Of a stretch of 64,000 nucleotides of DNA, positions 15,539-61,120 are shown piece after piece. Source of the stretch: Paecilomyces variotii. Lineage: Eukaryota. The notes beneath the pieces were generated by a model, which saw only the letters and a list, made by a program, of their open reading frames with translations, ran no database searches and was not told where the DNA came from. Location: the NCBI GenBank assembly GCA_004022145.1, contig RCNU01000001.1. The stretch is one strand, 5' to 3'. A program made the translations under genes and the position numbers. How positions within the stretch are numbered: position 1 is the first letter of the stretch; each line of letters starts with the position of its first letter.

Positions 15539-16296
15539 CCGCACCAGCTGATGCCCGATGAATAGCAAATGACGATATAATGTTTCTCAAAAGACAATGT
15601 ATGATCTTTCAATATCGATAATGACACAGGGGAACTTCGACGAGGAGAGTGACATGGTAGCGGGAACCGGCAGAAAAGTTGCTATGGCGAAACTCGGCAG
15701 TTTTTCATTTCGGATGCTTATTAAGCGGCATCAACCTGCACCGAGATGGCGTGTTCTAATAACAGTATTATTCCCCCTGGGAACTGACTGTGATTTTATA
15801 TTTGACATAATTGAGGTTGTTACACGCTTTGTGGTTTCTGTGCAATTGAGATTACATTTATTGCCAACTTGAAAGGTAAAAAGGCATTGCACCCTTAAGA
15901 GTCGGTACTTCAGGCACAGCACGTGCTCATGCTAACTATATACATTCAACTTTCGAAGTTATGCCCGCGGCGAAAGCCACATGTACAAACTTTTCTTTAT
16001 TTTTTGAGGGGAAATATCCTTATATCTATGCACTATAGAATATATCGCCCAATGGCTAGTCTACAGGTAGATATGTGGTTCGTACTTCGCTACAGATAAC
16101 TAGCAGAGCAACTCTGCTTTTTGTTAACGTGGTTATCTCCGATTTTCGGTTCTTCGTCGATGTCACGTGGTATCTGTATATTCCCATAAGGATTAATGGT
16201 GATTCTCACCGCATCGTCAGTCTAAGCTCCTGGATGCATGCGGGCCCAGCAGTAATAGTTATAGGGCTGACAATTACTAGGTAGATAACACTACTA

Positions 16297-16664
16297 CAGT
16301 AAATCCCCGCTATAACGAACCCCCTTATTACGAATTTTCCGCTATAACGAATTTTTTTCAGTGCCTGATTTAATCCCCCATATAAAATTCGTTAATTCCT
16401 CGGTATAACGAAATTCGTTACAATACTCTAGCTTACCACTGATTTTATATGGGGGATTCGTTATAGCGAGGGATTAGTCATAGCTAATAACCAATAAAAA
16501 TCCATAATTTCTTGAGATTTATTACATAATATTGTAAATTTTCTGTCCCTTACTGTGATTACATAATGCAAATCACTTTTTGCTAATATTCGCTATTACG
16601 AATACCACGCTATAACGAATTTTTTTCCGTGCCTCATTCAATTCGTTATAGCGGGGATTTACTG
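16297..16664. mobile_element. Non-autonomous Tc1/mariner (pogo/Tigger-like) MITE, 368 bp
   Basis: Perfect 23-bp TIRs CAGTAAATCCCCGCTATAACGAA (16297-16319 and 16642-16664), TA on both flanks (16295-96, 16665-66), internal copies of CGCTATAACGAA, AT-rich, no ORF. Confidence 0.9.
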
Positions 16665-17209
16665 TAGTTACTAGTAATACTAGAGTAGCGTCACTCGCAT
16701 AGAGCGTCAAAGGAACCTTGCTTATCTATTTAGATGATTCGCACGGTCGCCCATAGATCGACTACCATAATTCTCAGACACGTGCATCCATATTCCATAT
16801 AGAGTATGTTCTGCACTCGATTGTCGACTCTTGTGTGAAGTCCAATACATACACCTAGATGAGAGCACACTCTAGAATTAATAATAGTCTATAACCATAT
16901 AATTTCCGTTTAATTATGACAGCTGCTGCCCTGTGGACCTTGACGCCCAATGCGGCTTTGCGAGAGCGTGGCGGAGCTTCCCCGCTAACCGGCTCGTGCG
17001 GCTCCCGAGAGCTCCAGTACGTGGCTGAAAGGGGTCCGCGTTGCTATTGCGTAGGCTATCTACCCCGTACATAAATAACTATTATTTACTGTATAGCTCA
17101 CTGTCGCCATGGTTTAATGACTTCTGGTCTTGTCGACAATACGATACCCTATCCCAGAGCAGTCACACACTACGCGGGGATAGAGTCATTCTAAGCTTCC
17201 CCTCGTTCC

Positions 17210-41878: not shown

Positions 41879-41928
41879 AAACACTCGTAGAGCTCACATA
41901 TTAAAACACTCGTAGAGCTCACATATTA
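41879..41928. repeat. Perfect 25-bp tandem duplication between convergent CIA30 and ADE1
   Basis: AAACACTCGTAGAGCTCACATATTA x2. Confidence 0.9.
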
Positions 41929-43660: not shown

Positions 43661-46263
43661 ATGAGTCGCTACCTGACCCCCTCAAAGGTCGCGCTGTTGT
43701 GCGTGATCTCGGTCTATGTTGAAGGAACCGTCCCCAATTCCTCCGCTATACCAGTTCTCTCATTTGTTGTCTCCAACCTGTTTCCTCCAGACCATACAGA
43801 AAATGGTCCATTCAAATGGGATATGCATCATGCTGTGTCGATCGATCAATTCTACGAGGCGTTATCAGCCCATGTATCTTCGATACCTGGTCGCTCAGTC
43901 TGGGATATTTTCCTCAAGAAGATATGGTCAATAGACAGCTGCGATGCTCTACAGAGCTATTTCGAAAATATATCTTCGATGCTCGTCAAGACGCGAGAGG
44001 AGCAGCTTCGCGATAGAGATGATGGTATCGCTCCAGAAACGGGCCGGATGCTGCTCTCACGGTCATCGCCTCTAGGCGTATTTGTGAGAAGAGCTCAATT
44101 GGAATTCACAAGGCTTCAATTCCATGACTCAGTGAATTTATGGAAGGGGTTTATCAAGTATCGCCTGGAAACATACCGCGCGTGGGCTAGGAAGAACCCG
44201 TCAGCTGAGCAGACGGCTGTTGATATCAATCTTCTGGAGCTAGGACTTGCTCCCAGCAGCCCACTGGCGCAGGTGATGTACGATAACATCATGGAAGGAT
44301 CGGAAGATGATATAATTGTCAGTACGAAAGATGTAGAAAGACTGTTAGAGTTCCAAGTTGGGGAATTGCAAAGTACGGCCGTATCTCTTTTCTGCAAGGG
44401 CTTTGCTAATGGGACACAGGACTTGGAGGACGAGTGCCTGACGAAGTGAAAGTTCAACTTGAACGTATAATCTCGTCCGGGGTTACCATTCCAAGTCTAT
44501 CTCATTACCTCCGGTATGTTACTCTACCATATCCTTGGCCATTCAAGCGGCTGACAGTCTAGATTTCTCGACTCCTGGAGGGCAGGGGACTATTTATCTG
44601 CTTTCGACAATCTTCACCGTTACTTCGACTATACAATGCACAGTCATGATCGCAGCTTTTATCAGTACGCATTGCTAAACCTTGCTATCCTACAGGCAGA
44701 CTTCTCTTGTTACAGCGAAGCTATATCTGCGATGCAGGAGGCTATCTCCATTGCGCGAGAATCGCACGACATGAACTGTTTAAATTTCTGCATGAGCTGG
44801 CTTTATCACTTTGGAAAAGCATTCCCGCAGGAGATGGCGGGTGTCCAGAATGCCGGCCGCCTTGGGACAGAAAAAGAGGGCCTAGCCTTCCTGAAGGCGA
44901 AGGCAAAGGAGACGGAAATGTGGAGCCTTTTGAGCACAACACTTCTGAGTGAAGCAAAACTGCAGGCTCAACGGGTATTTATCTCGATATTTGCTTATGC
45001 TCTTCAGCCAGCTGACTACATATACAGGGCGAAGGGCTTGCATTGGCTTTTGAGAATATTGTCAAGGCCTCCCATCTTAACGTAACGAAGCACTTGAAGA
45101 ACTCGATGGGTCCTTTATTGTTGCTCCAGATTTCACTGTTCGCTAGGATAGGTATGAAAGCCGCAGGTGCTTTCTATAATAGACTAAGCTGACTACTTGT
45201 AGGTCTCACACATCTATCGTGGATACAGTGTGAGGTTTTCCGTGAATGTTACGCGGATAAGGCTTTACTTGAGGACTTGCTTAGGAGCATCTTCCGAAGC
45301 TGTCAGATAGTAAGTATCAAACTTCCACCAGAGCAAAACAATCACTAACATATCTGAAGCTCGCACAAAAAGGTTGTTATAAGGAGGCCATAGCACGCGT
45401 CAATGAGATCTCGCCAGAGATACTTCGCTCAATGAAAGCAAACCAGCATTGGATATATCTCTCAGGTATCCTAGAATTGAAGAGACAACTACATAGGTAA
45501 GACGGTCTATTCTATATTCGGGCATGCTTACCTGACCATTCCTAGAAACAACATAGAATCTGCTGAGAGTTTGTTGTCACAACTTCAATCCATCCAGCTC
45601 CCCGATGTGGACATATCCAGCAATCTTACTCTTCTCGAAATCGAACTCAGCGGCCGGAAGGGAGAATACGGACACACCTTACAGTTAGTTGAAGATGCTG
45701 CGCAGCCTTCACAAGAGGAAAATTTCGACATAGTTTCGCAAGTCAAGTTGCTATGCCTGAAAGTCCAATTTCTGATCAAAATGGGCCAGCCGCATCGTGG
45801 GTTATCGTTAGCCGTTAGAGCGACCAGCATCGCACACCGATCGAGAGTGTTGGCTGGCCTCTGGGAAGCGCTTTGTGCTCTCGCAAGCGTACTCCTCCAC
45901 CTGGAGGAATTCGAAGCATGCGCTGAAATAGTGGAAAGCATTATGCCACAGATCCTTGAAGTTGAAGATAGTGATCTAGCCGCGCGTTCCTATTCGCTCC
46001 TAGCAGACGCGAACATGGGACTTGCAGGAAAACTGTTGAAAGATGGAAACGGAGACCCAGCTGGGAAAGATTATATGACCCGTGCCCTCGAATATCTCCA
46101 CAGCGCTTGTGATGGCTTCGAGGATATCGAGAACCTGACTGGGCAATGCGAGACGGTGGCGAAGAAAGCGACAATCATGCACCTGTCTGGAGATCTCTTG
46201 TTGGCGAATGATTACGCTGCGAAGTATCTGGATCTTAGAAAGCAAAGCGGTGATACAGCATAA
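43661..46263 (+). CDS. APC5: Anaphase-promoting complex subunit 5, multi-exon
   Basis: MSRYLTPSK start, SPLGVFVRRAQLEF, AFDNLHRYFDY...YQYALLNLAILQADF...EAISIARE (Apc5 TPR). APC5 is a known neighbour of the MAT region in Pezizomycotina. Confidence 0.92.
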
Positions 46264-46664: not shown

Positions 46665-46705
46665 TCTCTCTCTCTCACACTCTCACACACACACACACAC
46701 ACACA
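46665..46705. repeat. Compound (TC)n(AC)n microsatellite
   Basis: tctctctctctcacactctcacacacacacacacacacaca directly visible. Confidence 0.85.
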
Positions 46706-47425: not shown

Positions 47426-48234
47426 TTAAGCGGCCTTGTCCTTGTTGTGGTAGTTGACAGAGGGGTTCCAGCTATACCATCGTTAGCAAATTGAAGCCCA
47501 AAATCTATCAAGCGCACAATTTTTGTCGAGAAAGTTGCGACGCATATAATGCACATCTGCACATCATCGTCGACAGCAGCGAGCGTTGTGTGTGATCAAA
47601 AATCAACTATGCGAAAAAAACAACAATACTTACAAGAACGTCTAGGGGTTCCACGAAGTCAGCGACAGCATCATTATACGATTATGCTTATACGAGGCTG
47701 GTCACTTACCTTGTCGCCATCGCCCCAGGGGAAGTTCTTGGTGCGGATGTTTTGATAAGCATACTCGGTACGCTCCTCAAGTGGGGGCATGTGCTCCCAG
47801 TGCTCCCAGTGCTCATTCCAAAGGTTGTAGGCATTGATGCCACCGAGGATCAGGCAGGGAACGACAGCGCTATTTCATTGTGAGCCTATTGCTAACTTCA
47901 ATAGTTTTCGGGCCTCCGGCTCCTGCTTTGGCTAGGTGACATACTAGATAGAGAGCTTTCTCCAGAGGTCTGGCAAGCATTGAATTAGTAATGAGGCATT
48001 GTGATACATATGAAGCCGCCGGGAACCATAAGAGATATTGCGCAACTCACCACTAGTGGCAGCAGCGTGTTCCTTGACGGCTGCACGCTCACGGTTGAAC
48101 TCATTGTCGACCACCCACGGAAGCTTGGGCTCGGAGCTGTTGAAGCGTCTCTGGACAGCATTGCGAGCAGGAGATGCCCGCAGCTGCTGAGCAGCGCGCT
48201 GGGATAGACGGAGGACACTGCGTTGAGAAAGCAT
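47426..48234 (-). CDS. COX13: Cytochrome c oxidase subunit VIa, 5 exons including an 8-nt microexon (47634-47641)
   Basis: NEFNRERAAVKEHAAATSDLWRKLS...EHWEHWEHMPPLEERTEYAYQNIRTKNFPWGDGDKTFFWNPSVNYH. Confidence 0.95.
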
Positions 48235-48574
48235 GGTTACGGTCAGTCGAAGTGTGAAGTGAAGCGTCGTCGGGATCGCTGGAGGTTTCAATGTTTGACG
48301 AACTCGAAGTGAGCCGTTTAGCGTTCCCGTGATTCGCCGGAGGGCCGGAAAGGGCGACTTCTGCTTACATAATCGGAGTGGCCTGATGTCACCGCTCTCC
48401 AGCATCACGTGCATCTTGGCACGCGAAAGATATACCAACCTCGACATCTGCGCGTCACTGGCTGTTGCCCAAGACAAAGCTTTAAAGAGTGGCATCCTTC
48501 TTCATTACCACTGGGACGCGGCTTGTTGCCGTATATGGGGGAGATATGCAGTCCTGGGGCCGCAGACGGTGAAG

Positions 48575-50796
48575 ATGGGGTTCCGTATTGTCACCTGGAA
48601 TGGTAAGTCGTATACATGTCCTTTCTGAGTGCATTACGTATCGAGATGCATTTCTCGTCTAATCATACATGCTAACTATGGCTTTAGTCAATGGTATCCG
48701 GTAAGAAGCACCGCACACACTTGTTACCACTGTGATTCTGGCCGAAGTATTGCTCTAACTCCTACGTAGAAACCCGTTCGGATACCAACCTTGGCGCGAT
48801 AAACGTACATTCGAGGCGAGTGCCTAATCTTGTTAATGCGCAACAGTACGCTAATCGTCAAGTGTGAAGGCTATGTTCGATGTCCTCGAAGCAGATGTCG
48901 TCGTGTTTGAGGAGACCAAAATACAGAGAAAGGACCTGCGGGATGATATGGTATTAGTGTCGGGATGGGACTGCTATTTTAGTCTCCCGAAAATCAAGAA
49001 AGGTCAGTCATGCCGAAGCCGCAGAATGATCTGAAAGTGACATAGTGCAGGCTATTCTGGTGTGGTAATATACACTCGCAATGCGACATGTACACCTGTA
49101 CGCGCAGAAGAAGGCGTGACCGGGATCCTCAATAGACCGGGCTCTTCCACCCCTTATCGTGATCTTCCTGAGGATCAACAGATCGGAGGCTATCCAACTG
49201 CAGAGCAACTGAGTGAATACGAGGTCGATGCCGCTTCACTTGACTCGGAAGGTCGTTGCGTGGTTCTCGAGTTTCCTGCGTTTGTCCTGCTGGGTGTTTA
49301 CTGTCCTGCCAACCGGGATGAGACCCGCGATGGATTTCGTCTGAGCTTCTTAAATGCCTTAGATTCTCGTATACGGAATCTTGTGGCTAGCGGGAAGAGA
49401 GTGGTTTTGACTGGTGATATCAACATTTCGAGAGCTGAGATTGACGCGGCGCACGCCACAGAAGCTGTTCGGAAACAGAAACTGACCGAAGACGAATTCG
49501 TTTCATCACCAGCGCGACGTATCTTTAATCAACTGGTGTTGGATGGGAAAGTCATTGGCCCTAGAGACGAGGGTAGGGAGAAACCTGTGCTTTACGATAT
49601 ATGCAGGGCTTTCCATCCTGACCGTCGGGGCATGTATACGTGCTGGGAACAGAAGATCAATGCTAGACCGGGAAACTATGGCTCAAGAATTGATTACGTT
49701 CTTTGTAGCCTGGACATGAAGGACTGGTTCTTCAGTGCAGATATACAACCAGGACTTATGGTACGCTTCTCTCGGGATCCAGTGATATATTGCTAACGTT
49801 TCTGGAGGGCTCTGATCATTGCCCTGTGTATGCAGTACTCAAAGATGTTGTTCCATTTGGCGGAACCGACGTGGATATTCGGGACATCATGAACCCACCT
49901 GGGACATTTGTGAACGGAAAACGCCAACGAGAATATTCGACGAGGGACCAACTGCCGCTGTCGGGACGATTAATTCCAGAATTTGATAGACGAAGGAGTA
50001 TCAAGGACATGTTTTCCCGTAGAGCACCTGCGTCTGGGGGACGGTCTCCGGTCTCTCTCCCGCCACAGCCGAGCCAGGACCCAATAAACAAGACGGTGCC
50101 ACCACCAGCGGCACAGCACAACCTAGATAGCGCAGGGGTTCCAAAAGATTGGATCACAAGCTCTAGTTCTCAAAGGCTACCCAAGCGTGATGCTAGCCCT
50201 CCAGCTGGGAATGTTGATACTGCTGGATTCCGTCCGGTCAAGAGATCTAAATCTGCCACTGGTGCTGCTCCTGGGGCATCTACTAAAAGCCAGCAGAGTT
50301 TAAGGGGCTATTTCAAGTCCAGGCGGGATGAAACTGAAGCAACAGGTGGTTCATGAGGCCCGCAGGAAAGTGTACCGATAGCTGACCTCGGTGTCTATAT
50401 GCAGTGACGCGGCCATCCTTATTGCGAGCATCGACCGGTATAGCAAATTCTGTAGAGCTAAAGGACGGCCCGTCAACAAAAACGTCTGCCGCCCCTCTTG
50501 AAAAGAGTACATGTGCCACGAGTTCCGATAAGACATCTTCAGAGGCCACCGCTATTATTGATCCCATCGTCAGCAAAGAGTGTTGGGCAAAGTTATTCAA
50601 CAAAAAGCCTCCACCTAAATGCGAGGATCACCAAGAGCCCTGCATCAGTATGGTTACCAAGAAGCCAGGTATTAACCGTGGTAGGATGTTCTGGATGTGT
50701 CCTAGGCCGCTTGGACCTAGCGGGACCAAGGAAAAGGGGACACAGTGGCGTTGCTCGACTTTCATTTGGGCGAGCGACTGGAACTCTCCAGACTAA
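48575..50796 (+). CDS. APN2: AP endonuclease/DNA lyase Apn2 with C-terminal GRF zinc finger, multi-exon
   Basis: MGFRIVTWNVNGIR, DSEGRCVVLEF, VVLTGDIN, NYGSRIDY, GSDHCPV, CEDHQEPC...GRMFWMCPRP...WRCSTFIW. Canonical MAT flank. Confidence 0.96.
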
Positions 50797-52089
50797 TCCA
50801 GAAAGCTGTACGGCATGGATAAACGTATTTTAATTAGAGACATGCGGTATCGTGTTTGCTGGCATCGGTAACGGGCTTGTGGAATAAGGGCCGACTTCTA
50901 TGAGAGGAAGTCAGACTATCTTGGCATTCTTCAGTGAGCAGTCACGGCTCCAGCAGAACACCTATTTTGACAAATACCAGAATTGTCATCTTCGACATTG
51001 TTGATACGGAACAGAAAAAATCCCTCGCATAATTACTAACAATCTCTATGGTATCTCATGACATCAGTGCATTCCGCGCGCGCTCGCCAGGTTCAGTTGC
51101 GCATAGGATATATCACTTTGAGTCTCAAGAAAAACGGCATAATAGATAGACACTAGAGGCGCTAATAAATCACAGCTAAATCAGTCTGCGTTCTACTCTC
51201 CAACTGCATTTGCATATGACAGTATACCAATATTACAATGATAATGTACCGATAATTGAAACCTCTTCTGGAAAGAATGCATAGCTTGACTTTATCGCAA
51301 CAGAAACACGATTTTACATACAGGGATATTAACTATGAAGATTTACTTCGGAAAACAGCACAACAGTGTAAGTAACAGCATACGAGCCTTAAACCACAGT
51401 GAATGGGATGGGACGTTAATGCCTCTTGGATATAGGTTCCTGCGCAGACAACACGAAGTGATTCGCTAGAAGCCCGACATCTTTTAACACGGTGCTGGTT
51501 CCGAGTGTCTAGATGATCCGTTTCCCTAAACAAAATATATCTGATGCTATGCCGTTTGTTAGAATCAGCGTACGAAATCATTACTTGCTAAAGGGTGCTT
51601 GTCTCCCTATGTGTCCTAGTATTTGAACATCAAGTCGAGCAATCGATTTTTTGGGCTGGTGGCCACATTTAGCGGTCATAAAGTCTCCGTCATTGACACC
51701 TGTGAATCTTTGTGACGGTAAGATATCTCACTGAAGCTTGCGGACTCTGTCAAAAGCTATTGTTACCTCCGTAGACAAGACTTAAAGTCAACGACCCGAG
51801 GGACAATAAGATACCAAATGTTTAGATCATATTCGTCCTTCGTGCTTATTTAATTTGTAGTACGCTATCCATCTCGCTTAAAATGGCATAAAAGATTTAT
51901 TAGACACATGTATATGTGCAGAGTCATTTGATAATGTTAGTCCCCTTGGGACTTATAGTAATAATTCCCTGACATAATGATACTGTTGAGAATATTCTTC
52001 GCAATTTCGTGAATATTAGAACGCAAATGCGCCTGCGATCTTTTCTTCCTGCCCTCGGGGCTGTGATCTCAAAACATTCCAGAATTCGA

Positions 52090-52890
52090 CGCATGGAATA
52101 GACTGGGCTACGAATACACCCGGTGTGTATTTGAATTTTGGTTGTTAGTTGAACGAATGAATGGGATAATTCTTAAATCCCACATAAACAATTTATTTGA
52201 GTATAGTCATTCTGGTGTGTGTCTCACGTGAAGCTGCCAATATGCTTTCATTCTCACTGACTAGCCTCGATGAAGATGAGTATTTAAAAGAGTTTCCAAC
52301 CGCAAGGGAGAATATTTACATGTCTCTTCCATTGTCTTGTATTTGGATTCTGCTTGAAGAAATATGCAGTTTACATTACATGGAAGCCCACATCGTTGGT
52401 GCCACGGGCACAGATTAGTTTCTATACCAGGAAACCATGGTTTTGGGAGCACTTCTGATAGCTTGACATAAGATGGTGGCGCAAAGGGAGAAACACGTAA
52501 GAGACCAATCGACCTTCCATCGGAGATTAAAATACAATAAATGGGAATTTGATCAAATACGTGAGACAGTGAACTTGTTGGTAAAAACTTCAGACGCAGC
52601 TAAATCAGACTGGGCCCCCTTGCTAGACGGGTTAACGAGTAGGGGTTTCCTTTGAGCAACGTACTGAAATAGACAGACAAATTGCAGACTCGCATATTTA
52701 CATTCGGTTCTCATGGAGACATCGAATTCTTGACATATAACCCGAAAGAATCATTTGTTGCGAGTACTTATTAGCCGAGTACATCAACGCCAGCAAAATC
52801 TGTATCCATCCCTGGGTAAAGACTCCATCTCTGAAAGGCATGTCGCCATTGGTGGGTAGATCTGCATTTTCTCACATCATCGGAGATTAA
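52090..52890 (+). pseudogene. MAT1-2-4: MAT1-2-4-like pseudogene (premature stops and frameshifts) inside a MAT1-1 locus
   Basis: Collinear fragments PGVYLNF / intron 52201-52264 / LDEDEYLKEFPTARENIYMSLPLSCIWILLEEI...EAHIVGA / IPGNHGFG / ALLIA*HKMV / FHRRLKYNKW / VLMETSNS*H / LLAEYINASKICIHPWVKTPSL match my recollection of Eurotiales MAT1-2-4. Stops at 52416, 52464, 52653 and 52731, plus frameshifts. Identification is from memory, not a search. Confidence 0.65.
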
Positions 52891-54173
52891 TGCGATCCAC
52901 ATCCCAGTACAAATAAACAGAAACGTCTCTAAAAAGAAGAAGAAGAGAAGAGAAGAGAACTGCTGTCCCAGCTGACTCATTATCCATCTAACCATCCACA
53001 ATCGTTGCAAGCCCCGCATAGGCCGTAATGCACAGAGCTTAAAGTTCAGGCTGGACCGGAATGACTAGGTTTATATGATAGACTTATCCAGTCATTAGGA
53101 ACTGTATGACCTGGTAATTCTCGGATTGTCCTGATTAGGCTTGACCCGGACGTGGCTCGTTTAAAATGCATGCTCGGTTCTTATAACGGTACCAAACGTC
53201 TGAGGTGCAGTGTATAAGCGTTGTTCGTCATATCCCTCCAGGGTATCTGCAGGAAAAGATTATCAATCGCGTTTCACCACTAATAACTGCCTCCTAGATA
53301 GCCAAAAGGTAGGGACGATATCAGAATAAATACCTATCATCAAGGAAAGCTGTGCTGGTTCCGCAACGTCTGCGAAACCACGGAAATCTGGCTGATGCTG
53401 TAACTTCTTAGATGAGATCGACAAGCAAAAATGATCAAGCTTTGAACCATTTCAGTTAACTTACCGGAAACCATATGTTTGGGGAACTTGTGAACTGGGG
53501 TCAGTCAGTCGAGAATAATAGACTTTAGGAAAACTTAGCATCCATACTCGGACCATTTCGTGTCGTAAACCGAAAGAAGGCACCTGATCTTTCATTGTCG
53601 GAATCTCCTTAAAGTGAGTTAAAATCATCAATAGCACTAAGTAGGAGTATATCTAATGACTTACCTGAGTTGTATATGCTTGCGAAGGATCAGACGAGAG
53701 GCTCCCTGGGATTGCGGTCTTCCCCAACGCATTGGTGTCACATTATTGCTTCCTGTTTCCATGAGAAGCTTACCTCTCTGCACTTTTTCTCCGTCTCTCT
53801 TGCCTTTGAATGCCATTCTCTTAGGATACACACAGCCCCAGGAGGAAGTATGCGAAAGGATGAACTCCCGGAAGGGGTGGCAAGTGAGTCCGGCTTTTTG
53901 TCGTAGAAGATACCTCGAGCATCGAGACCGCTTCCAGGGGCGCCATCCATTAGAAACTGCTGCCACGAATTCAAGCGTGGATCATAAGTAGGATGCTGAA
54001 TAGCCAGAATTATCTGTTGTTCCGCGCTATGAATTCTTTCCCAGCAGAGACTTTGGTGCATCTTTTTTGCGGCCGAGAGGGTTCTTTTATGGTTGATGCT
54101 GATTCTGTTTTTAATAGAACAGAGAAATCTCTTTGCTGAGTCTGAGGATGGATACAGATTTTGCTGGCGTTGA
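52784..54173. repeat. Perfect 28-bp inverted repeat pair (52784-52811 and 54146-54173)
   Basis: TCAACGCCAGCAAAATCTGTATCCATCC on + at 52784-52811; its exact reverse complement GGATGGATACAGATTTTGCTGGCGTTGA at 54146-54173. Confidence 0.95.
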
Positions 54174-54546
54174 AGTCGACGGAGCTCGGGAACCACAACT
54201 AAAAGAGTAGATGTAGCTTCCTCGATAGAAAGATACACGTCCTCCAAAATAAGGTCAAAAAGTGATGGCTGAGGATTAGTTTTGTGGATCGGCCTGTCAG
54301 ATTCCTGGATGCTCAAGAAGACAAACTGGAAAACCTGTGCATAGGCTTCTTCCACGGCTTCTTCCAGTTCGCAAATGAATTGTTCAGAACTTTTCCGGAG
54401 CACCTGACCATTCTCTGAGTAAAGTCAGCACCCGGGCGTTTCAAACGCTTTGATGTCATACCATCTAACTGTCCTCTGTCATGTTTCCATGTATGACAGT
54501 AGCTAGGCTTCTTTGGCTCCATTGGTGATTCCTGAATGCTCTCCAT
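53161..54546 (-). CDS. Accessory MAT1-1 idiomorph gene, about 340 aa, 7 (possibly 8) exons, divergent from MAT1-1-1 (MAT1-1-9/MAT1-1-4-type position)
   Basis: Exons 54546-54462, 54414-53774, 53718-53665, 53607-53548, 53494-53465, 53397-53334 and 53246-53161 join in frame through six GT-AG introns of 47-87 nt. An extra intron would move the stop to 53084. Lies between APN2 and MAT1-1-1. Confidence 0.75.
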
Positions 54547-54756
54547 TATCGATGATGCCGTGCTGCTGGAGATTAGGAATTTCTAAAAGGCTCGAAAATT
54601 GAAGATGGCCGAGAAATATCTGACATGTGCTTGGTACATAAAGCGCATCTCATATCCACAAGTTTGTGTAGGGGATTAGGGAATCAAGAGGTTACATCTG
54701 TGGTGTGCATATCGGCCCCAGAGTGAAGGACTCCCGTCCAAGTGAATACAACACAA

Positions 54757-54766
54757 TTCTTTGTTT
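54757..54766. promoter_or_regulatory. Candidate HMG-box (Ste11 TR-box-like) site in the shared MAT promoter
   Basis: TTCTTTGTTT matches the S. pombe Ste11 TR-box consensus TTCTTTGTTY, in the ~480-bp divergent promoter. Confidence 0.35.
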
Positions 54767-55023
54767 TGTACAAAGTCTTGCCAGCCACCAAGGCCACAGC
54801 GACATGACAGTAGTGTCAAGTAGGAACACTTCTACTTGAGCTCTTTTCTTGTCTTGTCTTCTCCGTCTTCCTTTCTTCCTGAAAAAAAGCTCCTTTCTCG
54901 AGCCAGACAGTTCTCATTGTCCTAATTGCATTTCCTTTTCACTTAGGAGATAGAAGATCGATCAAACCTCTACGAAGGCTTCACTGAAAACGAAGAAATA
55001 TCAAGAGAAAGCTATTCATCACC

Positions 55024-56176
55024 ATGGCTGTCGATTTCACCCCTCTTCAGCGTGCATTCAACGCCTTTCTCATGGCTATGCCTCCTGGTGAGCTGGAAGA
55101 GTTGCTCCGCTATCTTCATGACCACAACACTTCCACCGCTGGTCGAGCAGCACAGGCCACTGAAGTTGCTCCTATAGCTGCTGCTCCAGTCGCCGATGGC
55201 ACTGATAAGAACGGTACTCGGAACAGAGTCACAGCTGCCCGTGGAAAGCGCTTCCGTGAAGGGAAGTTGAGACCTCTCAATAGTTTCATTGCTTTCAGAA
55301 GTACGTTACGAAGTCACTAAATCACCTAAAACTTCCTAACAAAAGTTTTTTTTAGGTTTCTACTCTGCAGCCTTTCCGCAATTTACGCAGAAGGCCAAAT
55401 CCGGGATCCTCAGGTTTCTGTGGGAGAACGATCCGTTCAAGGCTAAATGGGCAATTCTGGCCAAAGCGTACTCGATTATCCGTGATAATCATGTTGGGCA
55501 AGTCTCACTTGATACTTTTCTGGCCCTGAACTGTCATTTCGTCGGAATTATCATGCCAGAAAAGTATCTTGCGGCCATGGGCTGGGAGCTCGCAATGGAT
55601 GAGAACCACCAGCATAGCATGGTGAGGACTGGCGCCACTCTTCCTATGGAAACTGAGACCACCATTGACTACTCTGTCAACGATATCCTGGATCACTGTT
55701 ATGAGACAGGCTACGTCAAAGGCGATCCTGGCCATCGTACTATTGGAAAACTCAACGAAGGCTCTCTGATGTCTTTTTCAAGTCAGCCCACCATGGCAAG
55801 CAGTGGGCTCGAAGTCAATACCGCCAGTCCTGAGATCACTACAGCAAACTTCAGTGGGAACATGGGAGTAAAAGCCAGCATTGATATTTGCCCTCCGCCA
55901 ATGCCACTGGATGATTTTCATGTCGAGGGAAGCGCTGTCAATGAAGACGTATCCTCCATCTCTCAGTTGCTTGAGCTCAGAGACGGACCACGCAATCAAC
56001 ATGAGTTTATGACTGAACTTGACGACGCTCTCAATGATCTGCGCGGGCCTAATCCTGATGACGACGACCTGTTCGCTCCCTTCAACCCGGCCATCGAGAC
56101 TCCAATCGTCCATTACGACCCTCTGGCCAGTGAGCCGTTCGATGCGTTCGACATTCATGAGTTTATGAATCTCTGA
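55024..56176 (+). CDS. MAT1-1-1: Mating-type alpha-box transcription factor, 365 aa, 2 exons
   Basis: KLRPLNSFIAFR/SFYSAAFPQFTQKAKSGILRFLWENDPFKAKWAILAKAYSIIRD alpha box with the conserved intron 55301-55355. N-terminal PLQRAFNAFLMAMPP is typical of Eurotiales. Confidence 0.97.
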
Positions 56177-57216
56177 GCATTTCTAGAAGCTCTCAATCAG
56201 TTGTGGTTTTTCTCCCGACGCTATTTCGCTGGCATACGGTCCACTGTCCTCTGGCCAAGGTTTTCATCTCACTTGAACTGACACCACGAGGGTGTCAAGT
56301 CTATTATTTTTTGTCAATACAAAGCGCATTCCTTTTCTCGTGTGCCTATATTTCTCTGGTTATGCATATACATGTTGCATGCCGGGGAGATACCGATGTC
56401 TAATATCCTTTTCGTCCTAATAAGCACTCTGTTACCATATTCTTGATCATGTTGAAGGAAATACGCCAACAGAAGGCCTTCTCTGATAGGCAACGATCAC
56501 CTCGGTGATTTACATTATTATGTTCACATGCACGCAAACAAATTCCAATGCAGATGCTCCGAGCCGTCATTTTCATGCACAACGGCCGAACTTTAAGTAG
56601 TTGACATCTTTCAGGGATGGAGGAACATGATGAAAGCGCTCTGAACCTCCGAATGGAAGGAAAAGTAAGATAGATAGATAAATATAGATATTTCTATCGA
56701 GTCTACATCACACGTGTATGGTTCTGAAACAACAGTTCTGTCCATAACTAGAATGTGGATGTCCTTATGTTAGGGTAGAGATGAGTTCGATTCGTGATTT
56801 GAACTGTTCTAACACCATTCTTTCTCTACTAGTCTTGTGTGCCACTCTGGGTGTGATCCTGCGCCGGCAATCGTCAAGTTTAATCAAGAGGCTTGAATCA
56901 AAATATAACGACTTGCAAAGCTAAGTATTTCATTATTGAGATATAATGGTACTTTGCCAATCAGATGTAGGCAGCCTTATGAGAACCGTGGACCGATACT
57001 ACGGCGATCACGGACTGAGTGACCGAGGAATGTGATAAGAAAACAAGATGAACAGAATAAGGAGATGGCATCGGGAACTGAACCACGTACGGAAGGAAAA
57101 TATATACTGCGTCGCTAGAACCGTTCTACTCAAACTAAGCTAGAGATTCACAGGACCAGACAAGGACCGGACTGTGCGTTGTGCACAATACAGATAACGT
57201 GATCTGAACGTTTATT

Positions 57217-60200
57217 TTACTCCTCCTGGTAAGAGATCTTGCGCATTTCTCCCAGCCTCTGTCGGGCCCTGGCCAAATTGTTTTCGAGCTGGAGAATTTC
57301 GACCTGCAGAGGATATTAGCTCTAGCTGTACAGCAAACCTAGTGGCTGCCGATTGAGGAATTACAGGTTTGGTCTCAAATGAGAACAAACCAGCTCTGGC
57401 CGTGAACACTCGGAAATAATACACAAAGGATCTGCAGTAGAGATCAAGGTACGTACCTGCTGCTCCATTTCTCGTACTTTGAATTCGTGACTGCTGAGCT
57501 TCGTGTAATCGACAACTTCAGTCTCGTCTCGGCTCTTTTCAGCTATTATGTCCTGAACTTGTCGAACCAGACTTCTGCAGGCAGCCCCGACAGCCTTGCT
57601 TGCGGTCTCCAGACGGTCCTGAGTCTTACTCATAAACGTAGCCTTGACTCGGCTAGCAGCAACAAGCTGCGCCGTGCTCGCTGCCACATCGTTACTGGCA
57701 ACAATCAGCTGTTCTGGTGAATTGCGTCCTGAAATAACACCATCGGCAGTTTCGATGAGGGTATTTGTGGAGGACGCCACAGCTTTCGCAGCTGATATGA
57801 GACCCTCCGTCCATCTGTTATTCTTCTTATAGAATGCTGTCCTTGACGAGCTCCCGCGGCCTTCTTTGACGATCTCCTGTTGTGATGCTGTGGCAGCTTT
57901 GATAAGTTCGGCGATTGCATTGGTGACAGCGATGGCAGCTTCGAGGATAACATCGTTGATCCGTAGTTCGTATGTCGAGTATCCATCGCGCGGCTTTTTC
58001 TTTAGTTTAGCCAAGCGCTCTGCAGCAGCGTCAATAGCATCCGCGGCCTTCGTAAGCTCCTTGTCTACCAGATCGCCTAGATCACCAGATGTGCTGATCT
58101 TGCTGCTCTTCGGAGTGAAAGTGTCGGCTAACTTAGAAAGTGCTTGAAGGTCCTTCTGGACTTCTAAGTTGTTGTTGATGACCACATCGGTTTTCTGTAG
58201 AGGCTCCATTCCTTCGAGGCGGAAGGATTGCAAGCCACGGAAGAACCGCACAGTAGCTTGAGCAGCTTTGCGAGCAGCACCAATAAGTTGATCCGCGCTT
58301 TTCTCATCCGTCGCGAAACGAGTCAGACCTTTGGTGTTGCTGAGGACATCCGCAACTGAACCGGAAAATATAGACACCGTGCGGATGATCTCAGAGTGAG
58401 CACTGTTCGGGCCGTCTGCTATGAAGTTGTTGAAAGCGGTGGAGAACTCAGTAGCCGATGCAGATGCCTTCTCGATTTGAGACAGTACGTATGGTGCAGA
58501 CGCGTTCTGGTTACCGGCCTGCATTGTAGAGTCCAGCTCATAGAGAGCGTCATCTACACGCTGCACACCACTCTGAAGGACTGAATCAATCATGTCATTG
58601 ACCTTAGAAACAGTACTCAGTAATACGCTGTCAATTTGCGTATCAAGTGCATGATCGGCGTCTCCCTGGCTCTATTGACTGTCAGTTGCGTTCTTTTGAG
58701 TCGATCCTTGACCGTAGAACAGACCAATTTCAGTTCCTCCAACTCCATCAGAGCTTGTTCCATTCCAGACTTGTAAACCTCTATCTCTTCGTCTTTCTCG
58801 CGCAAAGCAATCTCACGGTCAGTGTCTTGTTCCCCGTGTCGCGCTGATAGCTCTTCAAGAGCACGAGTTTTGTTCTAATAGACACCCTTGTAAGCATATG
58901 TAGTAAAACAAAAATCGGAACATAGGCTTACGCGTAGAGCCTCTTCCAGGTCAGCCATTTCCCTGTTGTATTTCGCCAACATAGAAGATAGTTCCGAGCC
59001 CTTTGCACGTTCTGCATTCTCTGCTCGCTCGATAGCGAACCTTAATTCTCGCTTCAGCTTCTCAACCTCTTCTTTGTTGTTTCCACTGAGCCGATCCCTC
59101 TCATGTAAAGCACGGTCTCTCTCTCTGATCATATCTGCCAGTTCGAGGTTCTTAGTCTTCATCTCTCGCTCAAGCTTCTCGCGCCTGTCAATGGCTTCTT
59201 GTGCAGAGGCTGCTTTCAGTTTCAGGTTCTTTGTTGTTTGTAGAAGATCAAGGTGCTCCTGGCGTAGTTTGGAGTACAGCTTGGCTAGAGCTTCGTATTT
59301 CGTACGCCAAGTATTCACTTGTTCCTGCAGAGCTCTTATCTGATCATCTTTGGATGCCATTTGTAAATTGAAGTTGGAGTTGAACTGGTTCAACTGCTCC
59401 TCCAAATCCTTCATGCGCTTATCGTACTGCTGTAACATCAATTGATCCCGTTCATATTGCGCTCGCGCATTGAGGTTTTCACGTTCCAATTCAGCCAGCG
59501 CACCCTGGGTCTGCGCCTGGTACTGGTCTCGTAGTAGCTGTTCCTGCGCTAAGCGCTGCTGCTCAGCCTGCAAACGTTGTTGTTCTTCGAAATCGCGCTG
59601 AGCTTGTTGCTGAGCCAGGAGCTGTTGCCGTTGCTGTTCCTCCCATTGCTGTTGCAATCGTCGTTGCTCAGCTTCGTACTCTTCTTGTTGACGCTTGGCT
59701 TCATTTGTCCAGAAATCGTTAATCGGTTCCGGATCAGCCGCGGATAGCTTCGGTGGCGGAGATTGTTCACGCTCGACTTCTTTCGTTGGTCTCTTTGGGA
59801 GGGCAGGACGTTCGTCGTCTTCGGCCAACAGATTTGGGGGATCCTGAGGAAGTTTAGGTATGGTTATTAAGCTGGTAAGATAACGCAAGTTAGAGCATTC
59901 GTAATAGAATCGGACGAGTCGATAATGTTGAGCGTTGTAACGGTTACGCAGTGGTTCGAGTGCCTCGTCATCTCCCGTAGCTGTTGATGAGTTAGTGCCG
60001 AGCATGACGAGCCAAGGGGTCAGCTTCATACTAGTATGCATAGCCCTTAACATGCTTGTTATAAACTTGTAGATGCCATAGCTTTCCTGTACAAGTGGGA
60101 CAAGTGCAGATATCCTGCATTCATTATTGGTACCGCTTTGGAAGTGAGAGAATATCAATTTTTGGAAAGCATCGATCTGATCTTGTAAGGTCATGAGATC

Positions 60201-61120
60201 AGTGATTGTCTCGTAACTAGGAGGAGGTCAGCTATAAGCAAAAATGTAAGTCGAGAGAGGATCGCGCCAACTAACCCTTCATTGGGATCGTTGATTGTCT
60301 TCAAACTGATATACTCCTCATACTCAAAGAGCCCTGGGTACGTTAGCAATACTCAAGAAATGGGTCGAAAGTGAGATTTGAGTGAGAATACAATGTCACA
60401 GTTGATGGGATTTTAACCTACCGTTGAATTCCGGATGATGGCGGTGAAATGCCAGTTTTGACTCCAGGAAGAAAACATATTCTCTGATCAATGGTCCATA
60501 GCCTGTTCACCATAGTTATTACCAACGAGTCAGTCCCAAGCTGGCAGGGGAGGGATTCAGCTATGAAGTACACACCTCTAATGCCCTCACCAGCCACACC
60601 CCTTGTTAGACTGTCGAGCCAGTTCACATGGCTTTGCGCCTCTCGAACGACTATAGGATGCCCCTCTTGCAGCACTTTATGTATGGTTATCAGGGCTTTG
60701 AATGTCTGAACTTCGTCGGCAAGAATGGGCTGTCTAAAGGATGAAAAGAACAATCAGTGGGTTGTGGAAAAGTAAATCAGGGAACACCAAAGAGCTTACA
60801 CTTTCATACCCGCCCAGAAAGACGCTGACGATTTATGGTCCCATGTATAGACGATACAACTCCGGACATGTTTCCCTGAACGAGTCGGTTAATTCTCAAT
60901 ACTTATTTCATCTGAAGATAAGTAATACATACTTTTTGGAGCAGTCTCCTCTGTTATATCGCTTGGTTAACAGAGCCTCCGTTGGCTAAGCGTTTGAGAT
61001 AGATATCTTACCGATACTGGTGGCTTTGCGAATATTGATAGCAAGATCCGCCTCCGTTCTGCGAAATAGGGTTAGTCAGGCAGCCGAATGAAAGAACTCG
61101 ATCGTATTTCACCTGCTCAT
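57217..61120 (-). CDS. SLA2: Sla2/End4 cytoskeleton assembly protein (ANTH, coiled coil, I/LWEQ), multi-exon
   Basis: EADLAINIRKATSI, QTFKALITIHKVLQEGHP, a Gln-rich coil, FYKKNNRWTEGLISAAKAV...VAASTAQLVAASRVKA, EMEQQVEILQLE. Canonical MAT flank. Confidence 0.96.

Follow-up and report, generated by a model that had tools for sequence, protein, structure and literature searches.

We analysed a 64,000-nucleotide stretch of contig RCNU01000001.1 from Paecilomyces variotii (assembly GCA_004022145.1; hereafter the window, with positions counted from its first letter), in which a 28-bp sequence occurs twice in inverted orientation, once within a minus-strand gene coding for a protein of 339 amino acids (the 339-aa gene) and once downstream of it. 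Judged by its gene content, the locus is a Eurotiales-type MAT1-1 mating-type region. A COX6A/COX13-like gene and an APN2-like gene lie on one side of the 339-aa gene, and MAT1-1-1 and SLA2 lie on the other (Table 1). About 2.3 kb between the APN2-like gene and the 339-aa gene contain no recognisable genes, and the 339-aa gene and MAT1-1-1 are transcribed divergently. P. variotii is reported to be heterothallic in passages of two earlier studies (PMC6300479; PMC10055108).

The 28-mer is present in exactly two copies in the window, on the plus strand at the left arm and on the minus strand at the right arm. The copies match at 28 of 28 positions, and the preliminary description of this DNA was right on this point as well as on the arm coordinates; no third copy was found in the window even with three mismatches allowed. 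A repeat finder extended the arms to 52781-52811 and 54146-54176, separated by a spacer of 1334 nt and 97% complementary, which agrees with the 30 of 31 matches given earlier. The pair is the longest exact repeat of the window, direct or inverted, in an exhaustive exact-repeat scan. None of 100 dinucleotide-preserving shuffles gave two matches to the 28-mer, and by our own arithmetic about 3e-8 such inverted pairs would be expected by chance. Copying rather than chance thus produced the repeat, which is real.

The likeness of the two sites stops at the borders of the arms. Gapped local alignment of the 150-nt arm flanks yielded 8.0 and 9.5, no higher than shuffled sequences did on average (8.7 and 9.5), and no similarity beyond 31 nt was found at the DNA or protein level. 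When 51000-53300 was compared with 53301-54700 by word-7 blastn and tblastx, the arm itself was recovered and the other matches had E >= 0.07, apart from a 32-codon tblastx match (E = 3e-4) that owes 9 of its 16 identities to the arm and lies outside the reading frame of the gene. A minus-strand open reading frame (ORF) at 52261-52599 gave E >= 1.1 against the 339-aa protein (P0011). Because similarity ends so abruptly at the arm ends, the repeat looks like a templated patch and not like a decayed long duplication.

The right arm comprises the last base of codon 109 and codons 110-118, which read QRQQNLYPS as previously described, in exon 2 of the 339-aa gene. Five introns of this gene were taken from the joints of an RNA contig (public run X15, see below), while intron 1 (54415-54461) was placed from the sequence. 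The resulting translation matches at every residue P0011, which is recorded as a P. variotii hypothetical protein with the locus tag C8Q69DRAFT_511399. Eight homologous proteins were aligned, two of which leave the arm uncovered as short gene models starting downstream; in all six that cover it the peptide LQRQQ[N/H]LYPSS is kept, with N in five and H in one (P0003, a relative with 81-83% identity). Sixteen of the 339 residues differ between the window protein and the allele P0002, and codons 109-118 contain none of these differences. Since the right arm is read in frame within a gene that encodes P0011 without a difference, and since its peptide is kept in 6/6 homologues, it is native and ordinary constrained coding sequence.

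No Pfam family scored above threshold for the 339-aa protein. Its large exon matched only three protein clusters among 5.8 billion, all from Paecilomyces or unnamed, one of them carrying the name hypothetical protein, Paecilomyces variotii. By these searches the gene is an orphan restricted to the Paecilomyces lineage. In the Protein Atlas, P0002 had low recognition (1232), and its nearest clusters, Dor1/COG8-like helical proteins at 0.85-0.90, were uninformative for function.

The left arm begins 349 nt and ends 376 nt past the stop codon of the 339-aa gene, so that a 3' untranslated region (UTR) of 300-380 nt, as estimated in the preliminary description, is indeed about what is needed to bring it into the transcript. 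On the plus strand it translates as NASKICIHP in frame 1 and as QRQQNLYPS in frame 0, the latter being the frame of two upstream ORFs. The earlier reading of this arm as NASKICIHP is true of frame 1, but the contrast drawn with QRQQNLYPS in the other arm is arbitrary, since frame 0 yields that same peptide here.

The left arm had also been assigned to a heavily decayed MAT1-2-4 pseudogene, a second gene convergent with the 339-aa gene. Protein and Pfam searches provided no supporting evidence for such a gene. The plus-strand frame-0 read-through of 52230-52883 contains six stops (entered as X), and in HMMER searches against 1.84 billion representatives it matched only P0005, which is its own 67-aa ORF, and P0006, a repetitive artefact. 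Word-index searches returned no matches among longer proteins for either a 62-aa ORF or the frame-1 read-through that includes NASKICIHP. Pfam searches of all six frames of 50800-53100 and of the plus frames of 56177-57362 gave nothing below E = 0.09, and no HMG box or other MAT1-2 remnant was found in these frames. The MAT1-2-4 assignment is thus unsupported by any protein match, the libraries being assumed to contain a MAT1-2-4 sequence as no reference was compared directly. Passages of PMC6231087, citing Yu et al. 2017, describe MAT1-2-4 as an accessory mating-type gene of Aspergillus, located in A. heterothallicus between SLA2 and MAT1-2-1 in MAT1-2 strains. What the left-arm region shares with it is the label it had been given, that of a Eurotiales accessory MAT gene; it lies instead in a MAT1-1 locus, towards APN2, and has no detected protein similarity. 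Repeat-induced point mutation (RIP) was considered as a cause of the supposed decay and rejected, as the indices over 51900-53160 are not RIP-like: TpA/ApT is 0.70 and (CpA+TpG)/(ApC+GpT) is 1.30, both close to the values of neighbouring genes. The heavy decay formerly described around the left arm therefore has no RIP-type signature.

Table 1. Features of the mating-type locus in the window, with strand and basis of assignment.
Feature	Position	Strand	Basis or remark
COX6A/COX13-like gene	47944-48501	-	
APN2-like endonuclease gene	about 48855-50800	+	
Probable 3' UTR of the 339-aa gene, at least 663 nt, containing the left arm	52498..53160	-	X15 record 2
Left arm, putative derived inverted copy	52784..52811	-	reverse complement of the coding arm, exact match
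Coding sequence of the 339-aa gene, 7 exons, MAT1-1-linked	53161..54546	-	RNA contig joints and sequence
Exons of the 339-aa gene	54546-54462, 54414-53774, 53718-53664, 53606-53548, 53494-53465, 53397-53334, 53246-53161	-	
Stop codon (TAA) of the 339-aa gene	53163-53161	-	
Right arm, native (putative donor) copy	54146..54173	-	exact match; codon positions from the spliced model
MAT1-1-1 (alpha-box)	55024..56176	+	Pfam MATalpha_HMGbox, E = 2e-30; intron 55301-55355, X15 joint
SLA2, I/LWEQ domain	57361-60227	-	

Twenty-four public runs were found, 20 of which contain part of 52300-54700, and four of the 24 (X5, X9, X15 and X17) were aligned to 51000-56500. X15 is labelled as probable RNA only; we treat it as RNA because its contigs lack introns at canonical sites, that of MAT1-1-1 included. 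All eight joints listed came from this run, and each skips an intron-like stretch bounded by GT..AG or CT..AC. Record 2 of X15, 1554 nt long, connects 54367-53774 through five minus-strand introns to 53246-52498. It covers the right arm as part of exon 2, and it also covers the left arm, with no interruption between its last splice junction (53334|53246) and 52498. Both arms are thus probably carried by one mRNA, with the reservation that X15 contigs are unstranded, so that overlapping plus-strand RNA could have been merged and the contig does not prove a single transcript. X15 has no cover over 51920-52471, and the contig ends at 52498, a few nucleotides beyond a U/A-rich stretch (about 52541-52524). 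Together these features are suggestive of a 3' end of the minus-strand transcript near this position, but lack of cover is not evidence and we do not count it. The metatranscriptome X17 retains the introns 53247-53333 and 55301-55355 and was used only for a single-nucleotide polymorphism (SNP) at 52808. Despite its label as metatranscriptomic RNA-Seq, much of its signal at 53131-53392 and 54799-55460 is DNA or unspliced RNA.

A model of the mature RNA (1737 nt, 54600-52498 minus six introns) was folded with ViennaRNA. In the minimum-free-energy structure all 28 arm positions are paired, with probabilities of 0.94-1.00 and a loop of 1015 nt, and the isolated 28-bp duplex has a predicted energy of -52.8 kcal/mol. 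This pairing is not independent evidence, as a prediction of this kind would result from any perfect 28-mer.

The two DNA contigs show the same arrangement throughout. X5 aligned to 51000-56500 in one collinear piece with no differences, and may be the source of the window itself; X9, which serves as the independent witness, also aligned in one collinear piece, with 18 differing letters and two insertions or deletions. These contigs, of 91 kb and 66 kb, were assembled independently and both hold both arms in place. Not one strand-change joint was found in the four aligned runs, although rare forms can escape contigs, which drop rare variants and carry no information on strand or transcript ends. 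All sampled words of the region were present in eight runs (two studies), and a share of 0.92 was present in six runs (four studies). X9 has five SNP sites between 52300 and 54700, which predict a share of about 0.93 by our arithmetic and thus suffice to account for this second haplotype with no need of an inversion. A metagenome scan based on the protein alignment gave 305 matching pattern stretches, none of which was a relative, and a scan for an exact 23-mer gave no matches.

The differing letters of X9 are unevenly placed. None of the 18 falls in the 1020-nt coding sequence, while five fall in the 663-nt putative UTR (52498-53160), one of these within the left arm. This last change, 52808 A>G, is found in both X9 and X17, whereas the right arm has no SNP in either run. 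The left arm is therefore not unmutated, as had been stated, and the two arms are not homogenised between haplotypes. In the predicted stem the substitution produces a non-compensated A-C mismatch that leaves 27 of 28 positions paired, at a predicted -48.4 kcal/mol. Because the coding sequence is unchanged and the putative UTR holds five changes, of which one lies in the arm, the left arm appears to evolve like the fast-changing non-coding DNA around it.

Taken together, we favour, with somewhat better than even confidence, a one-off templated inverted micro-copy made within a single transcription unit, which would now be drifting neutrally and might form an RNA stem as a by-product. The right arm, codons 110-118, would have served as template for an inverted copy of 28-31 nt, which came to lie in the non-coding DNA that follows the gene, about 350 nt beyond its stop codon. 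This most likely happened in a single event, in which a DNA polymerase was briefly on the wrong template, either through a replication template switch or as a templated patch during break repair. The copying would predate the split of the two haplotypes, and neutral drift since then would have kept 28 of 28 positions in one and allowed one substitution in the other. As a by-product, the coding region of the mRNA could pair with the 3' UTR as a 28-bp duplex, with possible effects on translation or stability.

Mutation by short template switches, which can produce perfect inverted copies and RNA hairpins, is described in the text available from three studies (four-point model; PMC5453318; PMC8794818; PMC8604942). 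The repeat resembles the events in those passages in its size of tens of nucleotides, in being a perfect reverse-complement copy devoid of flanking homology and in the RNA stem that one step would create; the copy found here is short and perfect, has sharp borders and matches native sequence nearby. A scar of this kind had been offered in the preliminary description as one of three options, and as an origin it is the one we prefer. Its attribution to an idiomorph fusion is not supported, since no HMG-box or other MAT1-2 remnant was found in the frames searched and the species is reported to be heterothallic.

Several points weigh against a neutral micro-copy. The direction of copying, its mechanism, its origin in a single event and its neutrality are inferred rather than shown. 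The distance between donor and copy, 1334 bp, would be unusually long-range, whereas the model in the available passages of PMC5453318 scanned 100-200 bp around mutation clusters. Identity at 28/28 positions and the presence of both arms in an abundant spliced RNA contig are also expected of a selected RNA structure, and a single polymorphism is insufficient to establish neutrality. Finally, a low-frequency or meiosis-specific inversion could escape contig data.

The first of these alternatives, a selected RNA element whose 28-bp duplex would regulate the MAT1-1-linked gene in cis, we regard as unlikely. Such a duplex might slow translation through the coding arm, change mRNA stability or provide a double-stranded RNA (dsRNA) substrate for the RNA interference machinery. 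The presence of both arms in record 2 of X15, the complete and stable pairing in the fold, the 27 pairs kept by the variant allele and the rank of the arm pair among the exact repeats of the window are all consistent with it. On the other hand, the fold would be predicted for any perfect 28-mer, the contig gives no strand for its 3' part, and the sole variant seen breaks one pair without compensation, in a comparison of two closely related haplotypes. A search of 50800-57400 against Rfam gave no match at E <= 1. Moreover, ribosomes would unwind the coding arm during translation. Of the earlier proposal of an mRNA stem, it is the precondition that finds support: both arms occur in one spliced RNA contig, and all 28 pairs are predicted. 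A more specific version, in which a template switch gave rise to a young cis-regulatory dsRNA element gating the MAT1-1-linked orphan gene through a translation block or Dicer-type processing, seems to us quite improbable.

It is likewise rather unlikely that the repeat is a relic of a longer inverted duplication, or a gene-conversion patch between sequences that were already similar, perhaps involving a decayed plus-strand gene. In its favour, plus frame 0 of the left arm gives QRQQNLYPS in frame with two upstream ORFs, and one ORF of 67 aa, at 52218-52418, is called as a protein in related assemblies (P0005, 6 contigs). There is also a precedent in Sclerotinia sclerotiorum, where the MAT inverted repeat is documented to have arisen when part of one gene was copied into its neighbour at the 3' end (PMC3574095). 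Against this stand the absence of any DNA or protein similarity beyond the 31 nt, the six stops of the frame-0 read-through and its lack of relatives among the 1.84 billion representatives. In X9 the change 52244 G>A removes the start codon of the 67-aa ORF, P0005 itself having I there, and neither a RIP signature nor an HMG or other MAT1-2 remnant was detected in the intervals searched. The sharp borders of the arms fit the templated micro-copy better than they fit a decayed duplication. To explanations other than those discussed here we leave a small share of probability.

Very unlikely is a DNA inversion switch, in which recombination between the arms would flip 52812-54145 and turn the gene on or off by truncating its product to about 133 aa. 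The inverted arms do flank most of the MAT-linked gene, and a flip would leave codon 118 followed by another 15 codons and a stop. The truncation at about codon 135 given in the preliminary description is thus roughly the end of this hypothetical fusion ORF (118 + 15 = 133), but it is not the position of the arm. Inversion through inverted repeats has a precedent in the MAT locus of S. sclerotiorum, where a 3.6-kb region lies between 250-bp repeats that are identical in all of 36 isolates (PMC3574095). As in that fungus, the P. variotii repeat lies in the MAT region, one arm being native MAT-linked coding sequence and the other a copy near a 3' end, and recombination between the arms would truncate the MAT-linked gene. 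The flanking geometry is the one shared feature among the four defining ones that we compared: the arms here are 28 bp instead of 250 bp, one orientation instead of both was seen, and the arms are polymorphic instead of identical. Furthermore, P. variotii is heterothallic in the passages cited above, and no MAT1-2 genes were found in the region. Both DNA contigs (X5 and X9) have the same orientation, the four aligned runs contain no strand-change joint, and the word shares of 0.92-1.00 in 14 runs (six studies) are explained by the X9 SNPs with no inversion. The ORF list of the window, the only source consulted on this point, shows no recombinase gene nearby. These results, together with the shortness of the arms and their divergence among strains, speak against the on/off switch that had been proposed.

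The remark made earlier that known MAT repeats are longer is borne out, as the 28-bp arms reach about one ninth of the length of the S. sclerotiorum motif and one quarter of that of the 115-bp repeats that mediate deletion switching in Chromocrea spinulosa (PMC5608430). Switching through deletion between direct repeats is also described for Sclerotinia trifoliorum (PMC4891775). Those repeats, which derive from a split MAT gene, share with the P. variotii arms their place at a MAT locus. In those systems, by contrast, the repeats are direct, measure at least 115 bp and delete MAT1-2, whereas here they are inverted, measure 28 bp and, in the intervals searched, have no MAT1-2 to delete. As for mis-assembly or a random match, the probability is negligible given that none of 100 shuffles reproduced the repeat, that two independently assembled contigs have both arms in place and that eight runs from two studies contain all sampled words.

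If the repeat is only a scar, it would provide a clean fungal example of a templated inverted micro-copy over an unusually long range (1.3 kb) but would add little to mating biology. If its stem were functional, one replication error would have been able to add RNA-level control to a mating-type-linked gene. In either case the 339-aa gene beside MAT1-1-1 now has a transcript-supported model of seven exons, with an apparent 3' UTR that measures 663 nt or more, and the labels 'MAT1-2-4 pseudogene' and 'idiomorph fusion' should be dropped for this locus.

Several minor observations concern the locus and its surroundings. X15 contains a plus-strand joint at 54742-54946 (GT..AG, 205 nt skipped) upstream of the MAT1-1-1 start codon at 55024, which is carried by one contig at a depth of 4. 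This joint implies an intron in the 5' UTR and a MAT1-1-1 transcript start about 200 nt or less from the start codon of the 339-aa gene (54546), and hence a very compact promoter region shared by the two genes. Between APN2 and the MAT-linked gene, X15 covers about 51184-51735 of a plus-strand region at 51184-51870 that includes a plus-strand intron at 51368-51435 (GT..AG), and contigs of X17, which are possibly DNA, reach 51868. The region represents either an unannotated small gene or a non-coding RNA; Pfam searches gave no match in any of its frames. The mating types of two strains are not consistently reported in the passages cited. In PMC6300479, CBS 101075 is MAT1-1 according to the Methods, while in the Results CBS 144490 is MAT1-1 and CBS 101075 is MAT1-2; in PMC10055108, CBS 101075 is mat1-1.

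Other repeats were noted elsewhere in the window. A 376-bp element at 16293-16668 has perfect 27-bp terminal inverted repeats and looks like a miniature inverted-repeat transposable element; it contains several internal copies, in both orientations, of a sub-repeat that includes CGCTATAACGAA. A perfect tandem duplication of a 25-mer at 41879-41928 is the second-longest exact direct repeat in the window, and an intergenic (CA)n microsatellite lies at 46684-46705, downstream of an APC5-like ORF (45481-46263).

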